Shown here: positions 4,060-64,000 of the stretch, in pieces
Numbering within the stretch: position 1 is the first letter of the stretch
How the letters are laid out: each line of letters begins with the position of its first letter
Source: Candidatus Scalinduaceae bacterium
GTDB taxonomy: Bacteria > Planctomycetota > Brocadiia > Brocadiales > Scalinduaceae
DNA: 64,000 nucleotides
Direction: 5' to 3'
Assembly (NCBI GenBank): GCA_046759445.1
Contig: JBHICG010000003.1
Coordinates: 1 to 64,000 of the forward strand
Translations under genes and position numbers: made by a program
Notes under the pieces: model-generated
Seen by the model: only the letters and a program-made list of their open reading frames with translations
Told to the model about the DNA's origin: nothing
Databases searched by the model: none

Positions 4060-4078
4060 ATTTGTAATCCTCACTAAA

Positions 4079-4180
4079 TTTTAGATTTCGGACTTCGGAT
4101 TGCAGATTGCAAAATAAAAGAAATGAATCCGAAAATCACATTTGGTACATTCCGAAATCCGCAATCTAAAATCCGAAATT
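4079..4180 (+). mobile_element. Empty (gene-less) copy of the heptamer-bounded four-helix-bundle cassette
   Basis: 4085-4134 matches revcomp 5468-5517 at 43/50; 4148-4177 matches revcomp 5035-5064 at 27/30. Confidence 0.7.
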
Positions 4181-5034: not shown

Positions 5035-5517
5035 TTCGGATATTAGATTTCGGATTGCGGAATGCGGATTTTTTTATTTAGACTTTCTTGCAGTTTTGAT
5101 AGATGCAACAGTAATGGCCAAAAGTTCATCACCCTCTTTCATCAAGGATTCTAATTTTTTCGATTCCATAATTCCCGCTTCAATCAGCAGTTCCATCCAG
5201 TAGAGGGATTCATCCGTTTCTTCTTCCACAATTCCCATCTTGTAAACAAAATCAGCGGACGATTTAGCTCGGCATGCAGCCCGATAATTTGCTCCTACTG
5301 AAGTGCCTGATCGTAACAATTGGTTGCCAATCACATCAGCTATTCGCCCTTTAGGCGGCGATTCAACCAGGCGAATAACACGAAGCGCAAACTGCCTTGT
5401 CCTCTGTTTCATTTCATCCTTATTCATTCTTTATCTCATTTCAAAATGCGAGATTCGGATTGACTGATTTCAGATTCATTTCTTTTATTCCACAATCCGC
5501 ATTCCGAAATCCGAAAT
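5035..5517. repeat. Heptamer (ATTTCGG/ATTGCGG) ladders forming inverted repeats around the four-helix-bundle gene
   Basis: 5047-5070 ATTTCGGATTGCGGAATGCGGATT pairs with 5494-5517 AATCCGCATTCCGAAATCCGAAAT at 23/24. Confidence 0.85.
5074..5427 (-). CDS. Four-helix-bundle protein (23S rRNA IVP / TIGR02436-like)
   Basis: RTRQFALRVI...QLLRSGTSVGANYRAA...FVYKMGIVEEETDESLYWMELL signature. Confidence 0.92.
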   Translation of the reverse strand: MNKDEMKQRTRQFALRVIRLVESPPKGRIADVIGNQLLRSGTSVGANYRAACRAKSSADFVYKMGIVEEETDESLYWMELLIEAGIMESKKLESLMKEGDELLAITVASIKTARKSK

Positions 5518-6562: not shown

Positions 6563-6590
6563 ATTTTTTTCAACTCCTTTATTTAATATT

Positions 6591-6621
6591 GTTTCGTGCT
6601 TCGGTTTTCGTATTTCGAATT
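6591..6621. repeat. Short heptamer ladder (TTTCG core)
   Basis: GTTTCGT GCTTCGG TTTTCGT ATTTCGA ATT between cheD and cheC. Confidence 0.55.
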
Positions 6622-6645
6622 TAAATGTAGCATCTACTCTCTGGT

Positions 6646-7160: not shown

Positions 7161-7306
7161 AAGGTTTAAGGGAACTAGTTCCCTTAAACCTTCTGGATTT
7201 TGGATTTCGAATTATTATTGGCAACCTTCATACTTTGTATGACCTTTGCGTAAACTGTTACTTCCTGTCGTTCTAATCCACAATCAGCAATCTGAATTCC
7301 GCAATC
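7161..7306. repeat. Perfect 32-bp palindrome plus inverted heptamer ladders
   Basis: AAGGTTTAAGGGAACT|AGTTCCCTTAAACCTT at 7161-7192; GGATTTTGGATTTCGAATT ... AATCCACAATCAGCAATCTGAATTCCGCAATCC. Confidence 0.8.
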
Positions 7307-52909: not shown

Positions 52910-54550
52910 TTGATTATGCCAACAGTCAAATACATAAATTCATCTGGAATAAAAAATAATGAGGGCGATTCTCAAACAAATAAGACAGAGATAAAAAACT
53001 TACACTATAATATGAAGGGGATTGAAAAAATAGGTATAGCATTGAATTCAGTGTTTAAGATTGAGAAGCTTTATAAATTGATACTTGATATAACTACAGA
53101 TGTGCTGGAGGCGAATTATGCATCACTGATGATATTAGAAGGAGATAGTCTTTACATAAAGTCTTCCATACATCTTCCCAAAGAAATAATTAAACAAACC
53201 AGAGTAAGAGTAGGAGTGGGAATATCGGGATGGGTAGCCTTAAAGGGTGAACCATTAGTGGTTAAAGATATAGAGAACAACATCAAGTTTAAGAAAAGAA
53301 ATAACAAGAGGTATTTGAGTAAGTCTTTTATTTCAATGCCGATTATCCACAATAATAAGGTCTTAGGAGTAATTAACGTTAATGATAAGAATAATAATGA
53401 ATTGTTTGGTGAGGAAGATGTTGAGACGCTCAAGATAATTTTGAAATATGCTGCTATTGCCATCAGAAATGCCCATTTAATCGAGCAATCTGGAAAGCAT
53501 ACAATTATTGATAAGCTGGAAGGTTTTTACAATAATGATAAAAATAAGTTTTTGCCAGTGACTCTACAAAGTCTCAAATCTGGCCCATTTAGCACAAACG
53601 AATTGTATTTACATAGTCAAAATAATGGGAAGAATAATTATGTACTGTATTGGAAAGGTGGCGATAGCTTGTTTGTTAATGAGAAAAGGGAGGAATTTGT
53701 AAGAAGGAATATTAACAGACTTTTTGTTCCCAAGAATGGTAGAAAACAATATTTGCGATTTATGGAAACAAATCTTGAAAGAATTGTCGAGGATAATGAT
53801 GTTGGCCTAAAAGAAAAATATCACATAGTCAATAACGTTGCTATTAACATCGCTAATGATGTTAGTACTGCACCTGATGGAGTATGTAACATAGAAAGGT
53901 CGAAGCATTGGGTATGTCTCATGGCAGATTTCATTTTTAACAGCCAAGATAATTTTTTGGCCCTGGTTGGAGTTATGAGTCACAATGGGAATTCCTTCGA
54001 ACATTTCATAAATGATGCAATGTTAGGTTTAATTTTTGTAAATCATCTTGGTTTGAGCCTTGATGAATCAAAAAAATTAGGTTTGGGTCTATTTCTTCAA
54101 GATATCGGTATGCGCAAGATTGACCCTTTAATAATCAACAAACCTACTAGATTGAGTAAAGATGAGTTTATTATTGTGAAAAAGCATCCAGAGATAGGTT
54201 TCCAGACATTACAGGATACAGGAAAGATTGCAATTGAATCATATCTGCTTGCCCTGAACCATCATGAAAACTTTGACGGTAGCGGTTATCCGTATGGTTT
54301 GAAAGGGGTTGATATTGATTATAATTGTAGAATATCCCGGATTATCGACGTATATAATGCGCTTACGTTTAACAGACCATATGCAAGTGCAAACAGTCCT
54401 GATAAAGCATGCATGATAATGAGAGATGTTATGAAAGGGGCTTTTGATACGGATGTATTAGATAGTTTTATAGATTTTTTGAGATCAGTTCAGGTTACAA
54501 CAAACACTACTTCGTCTAACAGGCCAATCAAAAAGGTTTCTTACTGCTAA
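52910..54550 (+). CDS. GAF plus degenerate HD-GYP protein
   Basis: GISGWVA...SFISMPI...GVINV GAF; LQDIG replaces LHDIG; HHENFDGSGYP. Confidence 0.9.
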   Translation: MIMPTVKYINSSGIKNNEGDSQTNKTEIKNLHYNMKGIEKIGIALNSVFKIEKLYKLILDITTDVLEANYASLMILEGDSLYIKSSIHLPKEIIKQTRVRVGVGISGWVALKGEPLVVKDIENNIKFKKRNNKRYLSKSFISMPIIHNNKVLGVINVNDKNNNELFGEEDVETLKIILKYAAIAIRNAHLIEQSGKHTIIDKLEGFYNNDKNKFLPVTLQSLKSGPFSTNELYLHSQNNGKNNYVLYWKGGDSLFVNEKREEFVRRNINRLFVPKNGRKQYLRFMETNLERIVEDNDVGLKEKYHIVNNVAINIANDVSTAPDGVCNIERSKHWVCLMADFIFNSQDNFLALVGVMSHNGNSFEHFINDAMLGLIFVNHLGLSLDESKKLGLGLFLQDIGMRKIDPLIINKPTRLSKDEFIIVKKHPEIGFQTLQDTGKIAIESYLLALNHHENFDGSGYPYGLKGVDIDYNCRISRIIDVYNALTFNRPYASANSPDKACMIMRDVMKGAFDTDVLDSFIDFLRSVQVTTNTTSSNRPIKKVSYC

Positions 54551-62500: not shown

Positions 62501-62637
62501 TTTAGTTTGTTACTCTGTGCGGTTTGGTTGTTAACAACTACATCGATACGTTTTCTGCTTATGGAGATAAGTTGTTGGATTAAGGTTGCAGTATCAAGGC
62601 CGGAAATCAAACCACCTATAGAACTTGTGCCAGGCAT
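59518..62637 (-). CDS. fliD: Filament cap protein FliD, unusually large
   Basis: GLISGLDTATLIQQL N-terminus; QDANVKIDG...NSIDDVISGVTI; C-terminal QFVQLE...LTQQL. Confidence 0.95.
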   Translation of the reverse strand: MPGTSSIGGLISGLDTATLIQQLISISRKRIDVVVNNQTAQSNKLKAYQSFNTQLLDFKSKASTLKDSKTFNVFKSAISTNSTNFKASDLLSVLTTTDASPGTHTVQFTSSSQLAQARQLSSQSYSSTSTALNLSGDFVINGKAITVITTDTLADIATKINNANSGSNATGVTATILSVSSTDNRLILTSDNTGKDSFSILDASSGATNILQTLGLTNGSTTIKNSTSDGAKSDEFSNSETTIKSLLNLTNAQNGTVTIAGENIVIDLSSESLSTIAGNINTALTAASKGTASVVSTTTNGVTTFRIDISGTTSFTDSNNILETLGILEGQQSSVAEVHTASTANIKVSTGLAIDSGTTFDDIDTGGGLNNVQNNDTITISGTDHNGNSVSGTYTISNINTDTIQGLLTQIETVFGLTAGSATIDATGQIVITDDTAGDSQLSVDIITNNEGGGTLDFGVVSATTQGFTMQTTAGQDANVKIDGVAVTRSTNSIDDVISGVTIDLSRIENGTTVNLTVSRDTDSIKSSVNDFVSAYNGVIEFINDQFTFNEETESAGILSGETFLSSIKSIIQSTITSTISLLPGGSNALSLIGITSDVNGKLSLKDSDFLSAISSDFNAVKRMFIAEGTATNSEITFIGHNKNTIAGEYAVNITTVATQATVTGNILTNGIGAGNTETLTITDTATGRVATITLDGNAGQNGSSIDNIVNAINSELDIERTQTLVGSVANSKTTAAGGGVITSSTKFSEINTGGDASDLVNGDIISFTGTTRSGLSISGSYTISDVSTDTVQGFLSAIESAYSNSISATINSSGEIVLTDNTVGDSQLSIAITEPAGRNLDFGTVLTTNTGGITGKYAMEITASKDGSDQLVITHDSFGSAQGFTITEMNALTGTAGTFVGADVAGTINGEAATGVGQILTGDTGSTTSVGGLSINVASTTTGSKGNVKLTIGVGEEMYNDLDSFTDQFDGLLTIRMDGIQVTVDNLQDTIEGMEGRLALEQIKIENQFVQLEISLSRLQSISSFLTQQLGSLTKLLS

Positions 62638-62660
62638 TTAAACTCCCATACGTTTATTAT

Positions 62661-62703
62661 GGATTGCAGATTTCGGATTAAGAGAAATGAATTCGAAAAC
62701 CAC
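62661..62703 (+). repeat. Isolated left end of the heptamer cassette
   Basis: 36/43 identical to 4097-4139. Confidence 0.65.
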
Positions 62704-62727
62704 TTTCCAAGATTTTTAAATAATATT

Positions 62728-62961
62728 TTAAAGACAACTAATAGGGTGAAGTTCTCGTATTATCCCTTTTGGATGTGACGTATATTCGAACAAGTGTCTT
62801 GACCTATTTATCTTCTCAATTTCATATGCATATTCATTGGTTAATCTCTCTACTGCTGCCTTATTAGTCTTTTTTGCCTTTTCAATGTCTTCAGGAGTAG
62901 CATACCAGCAGTACCAATTAATAAAGTTTCTTTTTTCCTGTTCTTTTTCTATCCCAACCAT
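62728..62961 (-). CDS. Hypothetical 77-aa protein preceding fliD
   Basis: AAGGAG RBS before the ATG at 62961; NWYCWYATPEDI motif; sigma54 promoter just upstream. Confidence 0.7.
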   Translation of the reverse strand: MVGIEKEQEKRNFINWYCWYATPEDIEKAKKTNKAAVERLTNEYAYEIEKINRSRHLFEYTSHPKGIIRELHPISCL

Positions 62962-62991
62962 AAGATTATCTCCTTTTTCCATTTTTGATAT

Positions 62992-63007
62992 CGCAATATT
63001 AGTACCA
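62992..63007 (-). promoter_or_regulatory. sigma54 promoter of the fliD operon
   Basis: TGGTACTAATATTGCG; box GGAAAAAATTTAC at 63124-63136. Confidence 0.75.
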
Positions 63008-63152
63008 AAAATTTATTAATTTTGTCTTAACTTATTGTTGTTACAAGACAATGACTTATAAATTGTTTATGACGTATCCGTTTTATACTAAAAAATTTAA
63101 CAGGTTAAAATTCACATGCAGTGGTAAATTTTTTCCCCTAACTTCAGAATTA

Positions 63153-63692
63153 GTCAAATTGTTAAATAGTTAAATGGTCGATTAGTATAATTCAAATACA
63201 TTTTGAAATTAGCTATTTATCTATTTAACGAATCAACCATTTAACCATTTAACTCTTTCACGATTATTCGTATTTTTTCCTATTCTTAAGATATTTTATG
63301 TAGCCATTGAGAATTATTATGGCTGTTTTTATTTCATCAATCATTTTTTCGGATTTGGTATTTTCCATATACTTACATTCTTCGGCTACGAGAATATGGT
63401 CTATCAACTCATAAAGTGATCCACGCGATTGTCTACAGAATTGTATGTTCTCTTGGTAATGAAATCGCCCGTATCCTTCTGCTATACAAGCTGTTGAAGA
63501 TCTTGATGCCCTGATCATTTGATCTGATAATCTGTGTTTTTCTTCTTTAGAAAAATTATTGCATAACTGCCAGACCTTCTTTCTTATGTCTCTACATCGT
63601 TGCCAAACTTCCAGATCACGAAAATCATTGTACTTCGATTCTGCCATTTAACCATTTCTCAATTTAACAATTCAGCTATTTGACCATTTAAC
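63153..63692. repeat. Octamer (AACCATTT/AAATGGTT) ladders around the second four-helix-bundle gene
   Basis: Units at 63650-63692 and 63211-63258 (same sense) and 63156-63187 (inverted). Confidence 0.85.
63264..63647 (-). CDS. Four-helix-bundle protein (23S rRNA IVP / PF05635-like)
   Basis: FRDLEVWQ...EEKHRLSDQMIRAS...IAEGYGR...SRGSLYEL. Confidence 0.93.
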   Translation of the reverse strand: MAESKYNDFRDLEVWQRCRDIRKKVWQLCNNFSKEEKHRLSDQMIRASRSSTACIAEGYGRFHYQENIQFCRQSRGSLYELIDHILVAEECKYMENTKSEKMIDEIKTAIIILNGYIKYLKNRKKYE

Positions 63693-63709
63693 GACACCAG
63701 TCTATGTAT

Positions 63710-63743
63710 AAAAAAGGGAGGGTGGTATATTACCACCCTCCCT
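63710..63743 (-). terminator. Intrinsic terminator of flagellin
   Basis: AGGGAGGGTGGTA-ATA-TACCACCCTCCCT followed by a T-tract on the minus strand. Confidence 0.9.
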
Positions 63744-63785
63744 GCTTACTTATATTGCAACAAACTTAATAAGCGTTTATGTTGC

Positions 63786-64000
63786 TTAACCAAGTAGACT
63801 CAATACTGCCTGCGGTGCAAGGTTGGCCTGTGCAAGCATTGCAGTACCTGCCTGAATCAATATCTGATTCTTGGTAAAGGAGACTGTCTCAAAAGCCAGA
63901 TCAGCATCACGAATGATAGATTCTGCGGCAGATAAGTTTTCAATGCTTGTAGCCAGGTTAGCGCTGGCGAATCCAAGCCTGTTTTGTGCAGAACCAATAT
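63786..64000 (-). CDS. fliC: Flagellin, C-terminal part (truncated by the window edge)
   Basis: IGSAQNRL...[14 protein letters not shown]...[26 protein letters not shown]. Confidence 0.97.

Follow-up and report, generated by a model that had tools for sequence, protein, structure and literature searches.

A mobile cassette of one four-helix-bundle gene and its octamer ladders at a flagellin locus of a Scalinduaceae bacterium

Described systems and their relation to the cassette

Tandem heptamers beside a gene of the PF05635 family have been published for the 23S rRNA intervening sequence (IVS) carried by Coxiella burnetii, in which two to three heptamers and one degenerate copy precede the start codon and an RNase III site is located in the first repeat; a mobility role for the IVS open reading frame was proposed as one hypothesis, and the accessible text of the article neither generalises the repeats nor relates them to protein clade (PMC4990558). 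The same gene family was found at scattered sites in rRNA insertions of CPR bacteria (10.1101/2024.02.27.582315, available text). The cassette analysed here lies in a stretch of 64,000 nt from a Candidatus Scalinduaceae bacterium (the window). It shares with the S23p-bearing IVSs of C. burnetii and Leptospira, as these are described in the available sources, the gene family, complementary ends and sporadic horizontal spread, but it lies outside an rRNA gene, between fliC and an 84-aa ORF, has an 8-mer instead of a 7-mer, and has three ladders; furthermore, the cassette family displays no RNA-stem signature. An earlier note on this DNA had found no match to a named system, which is correct only in part because of the published Coxiella heptamers.

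RAYT genes and their REP/REPIN repeats resemble the cassette in having one gene between inverted cognate repeats, gene-less doublets, and congruent gene and repeat histories (PMC2817692, PMC6006769, accessible portions). The corresponding features found here were inverted cognate repeats that co-evolve with the gene, and gene-less doublets, with just one other 8-mer ladder in this genome. However, RAYTs are HUH tyrosine transposases whereas no catalytic domain is known in the cassette protein; REPs are palindromic and headed by GT(A/G)G, whereas the cassette units form periodic, degenerate tandem ladders; and the cassette, unlike RAYT-REP systems as described in those portions, crosses phyla.

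Avd of diversity-generating retroelements (PDB 4DWL, 8UB7) is a pentamer with the same fold as the cassette protein (TM 0.74) at 8-10% identity. According to the accessible part of a structural study, all five protomers of the Avd complex touch one stem-loop and hold flipped-out RNA bases, and the Avd RNA, unlike the cassette ladders, is not periodic (10.1101/2023.10.23.563531). The Avd setting includes a reverse transcriptase, a template and a variable region, none of which is present at the cassette, whose neighbours are flagellar.

Intergenic arrays of the heptamers TAACTGA (PMC4679880) and GGGAATC / GGGGA(C/T)T (PMC4692102) are, like the cassette ladders, short, tandem and often located by start codons or in inverted pairs; the available text of the former suggests that a repeat-binding protein could be the mobile element, and in the available text of both the arrays are not tied to this gene family. 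Two further articles, in their accessible parts, list only the annotation of the family (PMC8700078, PMC5524665). One homologous locus (L050) has a downstream arm of tandem TAACTGA units, the array type of Beggiatoaceae, cyanobacteria and Bacteroidetes in the portions of the literature available. On a Nostoc plasmid (NZ_CP054697.1; L351:1050-1730) a family gene lies antisense between nrdA and nrdB within nearly perfect 8-mer arms that resemble the Nostoc G-rich heptamer, as given in the accessible text, plus one base.

Judged by defining features, the locus belongs with neither intervening sequences nor RAYT elements nor retroelements; in its workings it comes closest to a RAYT unit that lacks the enzyme, and its gene and arms make it kin to the intervening sequence. 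No description of gene-plus-ladder cassettes as a class was found in the literature searched, mostly open main texts, and the class is barely described, the heptamers of the Coxiella rRNA intervening sequence being the one case in print. Structures have been solved for the large family PF05635, which has no function assigned, and the short, periodic arrays that lie between bacterial genes have long been puzzling; the present locus ties the two together.

Layout, host context and insertion of the cassette

The earlier note had described a gene flanked by period-8 ladders, and this was confirmed, with six upstream units and six direct plus four inverted downstream units (Table 1); its ladder ends were off by a few bases owing to the choice of phase. 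The ATG (63645-63647) was likewise found inside a repeat unit at this locus, as the final three bases of the sixth upstream unit. The proposed position between the fliC terminator and the fliD promoter stood on the terminator side and failed on the other, where the cassette borders the conserved upstream region of the 84-aa ORF, which is followed by fliD.

Table 1. Positions of the cassette, its parts, its host surroundings and the comparison cassette in the window
Feature	Position	Strand	Remark
Whole cassette: ladder > gene > ladder, loop, < inverted ladder	63153..63692	-	ends approximate; ~550 nt inserted
Upstream ladder, six 8-nt units, last one ending in start codon	63645..63692	-	
PF05635/TIGR02436 four-helix-bundle gene, 127 aa, pI 8.9	63264..63647	-	
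Downstream ladder, six units, oriented like upstream ladder	63206..63253	-	repeat family D1
Loop of downstream hairpin	63185..63205	no strand	
Inverted ladder, four units	63153..63184	+	
Host context: intrinsic terminator after flagellin gene	63715..63743	-	conserved in relatives
Host context: flagellin gene (fliC), 3' end	63786..64000	-	
Host context: conserved 84-aa ORF between cassette and fliD	62728..62982	-	no named family
Comparison 7-mer cassette: ladder > 5489-5517, loop, ladder < ~5438-5476, gene 5074-5427, ladder < 5039-5068	5035..5517	-	

The period-8 scores of the two gene spacers, 12.4 and 20.8, were each reached by none of 2000 dinucleotide shuffles. The downstream ladder is 80% identical to the upstream ladder over 45 nt, and the inverted ladder can pair with either, forming a 23-bp stem with the downstream one. 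The complementary ends of the cassette can form a stem, with a fold z of -6.2, a value that includes the terminator.

The cassette protein matched the PF05635 profile at E 2.2e-28 (99 bits, curated cut-off 33.8) and TIGR02436 at E 5.3e-28 (97.4 bits, cut-off 24); PF05635 was the sole family matched, and no HUH/Y1 or other transposase is encoded in the cassette. The structure model consists of four helices (pLDDT 92.6). The closest solved structures are Xcc0516 (PDB 2GSC; TM 0.84, rmsd 1.2) and BT_0352 (PDB 2RLD; TM 0.76), with a sequence E of 1.2e-6; both have the same fold as the cassette protein and five chains per PDB entry. The surface of the cassette protein is basic. Close homologs are under purifying selection, with dN of 0.13-0.34 and dS undefined through saturation in 12 of 15 pairs, and 116 of 306 fourfold sites were identical among them.

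The flagellin gene, the 84-aa ORF and fliD were found together in 12 of the 30 relatives searched, and the cassette gene was absent from this site in all 12. No 8-mer ladder was present in the spacers of these relatives, the criterion being a 4-unit ladder scoring >7.5, compared with 42 here. The distance from the terminator to the next conserved block was ~20 nt in four of six aligned relatives, ~50 nt in two, and ~570 nt in this genome. These comparisons show that a block of ~550 nt was inserted at this site as a unit; the empty sites are too diverged for the junctions to be read, and a target-site duplication is unreadable in these alignments.

The host encodes hydrazine synthase alpha, and from this one marker it appears to be an anammox bacterium. 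The best intact match to the cassette protein among the 30 relatives had 61% identity, and one relative (G005) additionally contained a 25-residue remnant at 92%. The closest homologs, among the best 80 of 528 confirmed stretches in the genome collection, were 68-78% identical over nearly the full length and came from records titled Deltaproteobacteria, Desulfobacteraceae, Syntrophobacter and, in one case, the archaeal Promethearchaeota; these homologs in other phyla carry the same repeat motif, G-T-Y-R-A-W-T-V. This distribution suggests that the gene was acquired horizontally. Carriage by phage or plasmid was rejected, as no match was found among 50,697 phage records, all 23 matching plasmid records were below 60%, and the best of 13 matches to viral contigs was 44%.

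The 84-aa ORF is retained in the 12 relatives and had no Pfam or NCBIfam match; its start is probably near 62964, and additional copies occur in relatives. In the Atlas it resembled clusters of HTH_16 / sigma region 2 (0.89-0.92), sharing few features with them, and this is no more than a lead. A non-coding block upstream of it (63000-63140) is conserved in all aligned relatives and may be a portable promoter-leader. A sigma-70 promoter scan gave 6 sites where 6.3 were expected by chance, and the Rfam scan gave nothing close to a gathering score and no rRNA match in 62600-64000.

Since the cassette gene lies behind a strong terminator, it may be silent. Assembled contigs from two DNA sequencing runs, possibly those of origin, contained the stretch whole, with no joint crossing the cassette, although contigs drop rare variants. 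One RNA run yielded contigs of ~94% identity over 62881-63176 and 63619-64000, the latter spanning the flagellin end, the terminator, the ladder and the gene start with mid-gene uncovered; contigs of this kind cannot show transcription.

Linkage of the repeat motif with the protein clade

The 8-mer unit has the consensus G-T-Y-R-A-W-T-V. In 146 unfiltered units from 13 loci the positions were G (.97), T (.89), T/C, A/G, A (.95), A/T, T (.95) and any base, values somewhat inflated by the selection of segments for their periodicity and by phasing to the best match with a single unit; G1, T2, A5 and T7 were the majority base in all 23 arms. Sixty-five of 141 units were distinct, and adjacent units were identical in 3.4% of cases versus 3.6% at random. 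Slippage makes neighbours alike, so ladders whose adjacent units are no more alike than random units point to an array of binding sites instead.

Ladders of at least three units had a median of 5 units for the 8-mer (range 3-12) and of 4 for the 7-mer (range 3-28), shorter ones having been left out of the counts. The suggestion that ladders of 4-6 units would suit one unit per subunit of a pentamer fits the majority, 34 of 58 8-mer ladders and 131 of 177 7-mer ladders, but not the ranges, which extend to 12 and 28. A candidate start codon inside a unit-like 8-mer was found in 7 of 23 close homologs; it is a minority trait, better seen as a side effect of a unit that ends in ATG than as design.

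In this genome, 19 matches to TIGR02436 were located at 17 loci, with repeat periods from 6 to 10. Flank windows were taken from the HMM ends for family loci and from start and stop codons for other genes. Both flanks scored at least 10 at one period at 6 of the 17 family loci and at one of 2814 other genes, which itself adjoins the 5074 cassette; at a score of at least 7 the counts were 7 of 17 and 23 of 2814, and three family loci scored only 4. The earlier note had named an equal frequency of ladders elsewhere as grounds for abandoning its idea; in this genome they were commoner near family genes than near other genes at both scores.

An 8-mer matrix trained on 17 foreign loci marked three clusters in 3.6 Mb, namely both ends of this cassette and a lone ladder on contig C26; in shuffled genomes there was one apiece. 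For eleven paralogs, the matrix marked in each case the genes of its own clade plus gene-less ladders, with two overlaps between neighbours or related 7-mers. The parallel drawn by the earlier note between this locus and the cassette at 5035-5517 also held, the latter having a 7-mer and its extra hairpin on the 5' side. Gene-less 7-mer ladders of that type were observed at 4075-4111, 6590-6622, 7191-7213 and 62658-62682, at other junctions between genes of the chemotaxis cluster and upstream of fliD. Two period-6 stretches, 53201-53221 and 53373-53398, lie ~150 nt apart.

For a wider comparison, 308 loci were reduced to 234 intact genes with enough flank by dropping broken, cut and duplicate loci. 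The sample is biased, 79 loci having been picked by likeness to this protein and 80 by likeness to the 5074 paralog; the remaining loci came from family searches in 17 genomes with at most 30 loci per search. Ladders on both sides were found for 206 genes, 137 with period 7 and 52 with period 8. Cross-genome pairs had the same period in 98% of cases at 70-80% identity (375 pairs), 86% at 60-70%, 66% at 50-60% and ~40% below 40%. The Mantel correlation between protein and repeat was 0.61, in a sample whose kin are not independent. A better test, permutation of repeats among paralogs within genomes, gave at most 0.15 in 1000 runs versus an observed r of 0.32 (80 genes, 13 genomes). In 59 of 80 cases the repeat of the nearest protein from another genome was more alike than that of the mean same-genome paralog, and in only 40 of 80 more alike than that of the best paralog.

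In a 77-row tree of the wider clade, built from few columns by a quick search, this protein fell in a 21-row clade (SH-aLRT 96) of 19 period-8 loci, one period-7 locus and one unscored locus, and the period changed 13 times versus at least 17 in 300 shuffles. All 13 genes at 68% identity or above, a set that overlaps the training set, had both flanks scored by the 8-mer matrix, as did 7 of 18, 11 of 45 and 0 of 158 genes in successively lower identity bands. Below ~65% identity the period is labile; L050 has a 7-mer inside the 8-mer clade, and by eye a distant clade (21-38% identity) carries the 8-mer G-N-N-R-A-T-K-N, which overlaps the present motif.

Repeat type follows protein clade and not host genome, and the link is real but loose. 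The claim that each paralog travels with its own repeat was borne out, near-identical proteins across genomes sharing period and motif while paralogs of the same genome differ. The protein-repeat code proposed with it survives as congruence with protein clade; it is not one-to-one, given the 13 period changes and the overlapping 8-mer of a distant clade.

Shared sites were found in several states. Among 43 pairs with at least 84% identity, many had nothing in common beyond the gene and at most ~100 nt of flanking DNA, two 96%-identical copies within G005 among them, and others shared whole neighbourhoods. Two loci (L198 and L185) have the same two neighbour genes with the cassette in opposite orientations. 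At a CoA-transferase junction, relatives of G036 have empty sites, short ladder remnants, a cassette of this clade, or a cassette of another clade (21-38% identity). At the 5035-5517 site, the spacers of eight of nine relatives are too short for the gene and the ninth holds another insert; a hairpin with the same loop is present without the gene in G005, and in this genome two copies of that hairpin's right arm enclose the gene. The present locus mirrors this with its gene between two left arms, a layout seen in 5 of 22 close loci, and the commonest layout, in 11 of 22, was the gene between inverted arms. Gene-less 8-mer arms occur in G005 (L311) and at L324.

The CoA-transferase junction suggested that arms might be resident at a site while the ORF is swapped. 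This seems unlikely: the second clade has period-8 arms elsewhere and a different 8-mer at that junction in two genomes (six homologs from 121 genomes), so the arms follow the protein. The cassette moves between sites and phyla, with protein clade and motif inherited together, and we have high confidence that it is a real, mobile, cross-phylum cassette with a clade-linked motif. Near-identical 7-mer cassettes at L188, L195 and L201 occupy two sites, apparently antisense to host genes, and by eye their first arm bases complete the host stop codon.

Proposed mechanism and alternative explanations

The explanation that we favour, at a probability of roughly one half, is a small selfish cassette without an enzyme of its own, in which a ring protein binds its own motif and the ladders are exchanged by another enzyme. 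The selfish unit would comprise a single four-helix-bundle gene flanked by arrays in which a short, degenerate motif recurs. The protein probably forms a five-membered ring, as its structural relatives do, and the ring would bind its motif unit by unit, with an unpaired strand as the likeliest target, the ladders being arrays of binding sites. A host or trans-acting enzyme might then bring bound ladders into contact and exchange them, a step of which we are less sure. Such exchange would allow the gene to move into or out of hairpins that carry the same motif but no gene, giving direct ladders around it as seen here, and equally to replace a hairpin loop or to invert. The gene would ride on host transcription and do little harm by landing between genes.

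Ladder-to-ladder exchange is a plausible route, as it accounts for the filled, gene-less, inverted and swapped states. Two observations weigh on the other side: a gene between inverted ladders, the layout of 11 of 22 close loci, cannot excise by direct repeats, which counts against the proposal, and relatives have no resident 8-mer hairpin at this site, so that entry into a new site is unexplained by ladder exchange. The chances that the protein recognises its own motif, as the earlier note suggested it may, are about even. Retention of the fixed positions while synonymous sites are saturated speaks indirectly for recognition; congruence of clade and motif also arises from linkage in a mobile unit without recognition.

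An alternative that we consider unlikely, although the best placed of the rivals, is an RNA-level element like the rRNA intervening sequence, in which the arms pair in the transcript, RNase III excises the element and an Avd-like ring holds the RNA, perhaps for a reverse transcriptase acting in trans. Consistent with it are the Coxiella intervening sequence, which combines a gene of this family with tandem heptamers and is excised by RNase III, the binding of Avd to RNA and to a reverse transcriptase, and the downstream hairpin, whose gene-strand form is the more stable and contains two G-U pairs (-30.1 versus -23.0 kcal/mol). Family genes were co-oriented with the upstream gene in 202 of 212 cases versus 82% of all genes here (crude gene calls), which is equally explained by a need for read-through expression. 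However, the enclosing stems at 192 of 234 loci contained 234 G-U versus 229 A-C appositions, the same as the null, and selection on an RNA stem was therefore rejected. In addition, antisense cassettes such as that of the Nostoc plasmid exist, and the present copy lies behind a terminator. A reverse transcriptase in trans was rejected as well, with no match in the genus (this genome and two congeners). No match to PF00078 was found in G000 (this genome, 97% complete), G001, G002 and G025 despite 15, 9, 5 and 9 family matches, respectively, with the caveat that multi-copy introns are often unassembled; G021 had 50 PF00078 and 8 family matches. By inspection of 31 genomes, whose kin are not independent, reverse transcriptases had no visible relation to family copy number.

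It is improbable that the ladders are read in trans by an HUH/Y1 transposase or a GxxExxY nuclease with the four-helix-bundle gene as cargo. This genome has 22 PF01797 and 8 GxxExxY matches, and four of the GxxExxY genes are themselves enclosed by inverted periodic arms. The motif, however, follows the cargo protein across phyla and not the host, the GxxExxY arms carry other motifs, and the HUH genes have no ladders: none of the 19 scorable HUH transposase (PF01797) loci reached a two-flank ladder score of 7, two of 21 lying at contig ends, so that this enzyme was rejected as ladder owner and not found as a catalytic partner. The four GxxExxY genes (G000 C90:6030-6398, C60:9116-9445, C46:797-1156 and C7:2854-3201) show the same packaging with different cargo.

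Passive linkage, by which the ladders would be slippage products beside a gene with a host-level role, appears no less improbable. Unit number does vary between arms, period drifts by one-base changes, and arms of the same locus pair better than arms of two homologs (19.3 versus 15.6; 118 versus 55 of 176). Neighbouring units are nevertheless not homogenised, four positions stay fixed while synonymous sites saturate, and inversion symmetry and the patchy, shifting sites are left unexplained.

Autoregulation by a TRAP-like ring, which would bind the ladder over its own start codon and repress its translation, would suit the codon inside the last unit, the ring fold and the basic surface, but it is very improbable as the main role and may be a side role of the ladder, because the start lies outside a unit in 16 of 23 close homologs and the downstream and inverted ladders and gene-less copies are unexplained by it.

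Extending the preferred reading of a ring protein that binds its own motif, we tentatively propose an undescribed class of autonomous mobile cassettes whose sole protein is a non-enzymatic pentameric ring, each clade reading its own 6-10-nt motif with one unit per subunit and driving exchange between ladders with host enzymes. The class would have rRNA intervening sequences among its landing places, and many of the heptamer and octamer arrays that lack an explanation in bacteria would represent its empty arms. If so, hundreds of natural ring-motif pairs would constitute a readable recognition code. If the ring does recognise its motif, the spread of S23p intervening sequences would be explained, an origin for Avd suggested, and a small ring-shaped scaffold made available in many natural specificities; should recognition fail, a real cross-phylum mobile unit without a known enzyme is left. 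The two paralogs in one window, with sharply defined and different motifs (an 8-mer with four fixed positions and a 7-mer), offer a direct test.

Elsewhere in this genome, at C8:34009-36001, two copies with identical protein cores and near-palindromic 9-mer arms lie 1.5 kb apart; next to them a third paralog, with 6-mer arms, is followed by a short gene with a Cas2-like beginning as read by eye. Ladders or cassettes of one motif were also observed in or beside hairpins of another motif at G000 C26:37539-37595, L125 and L127, L311, and L001 and L002, as if hairpin loops attract further insertions.
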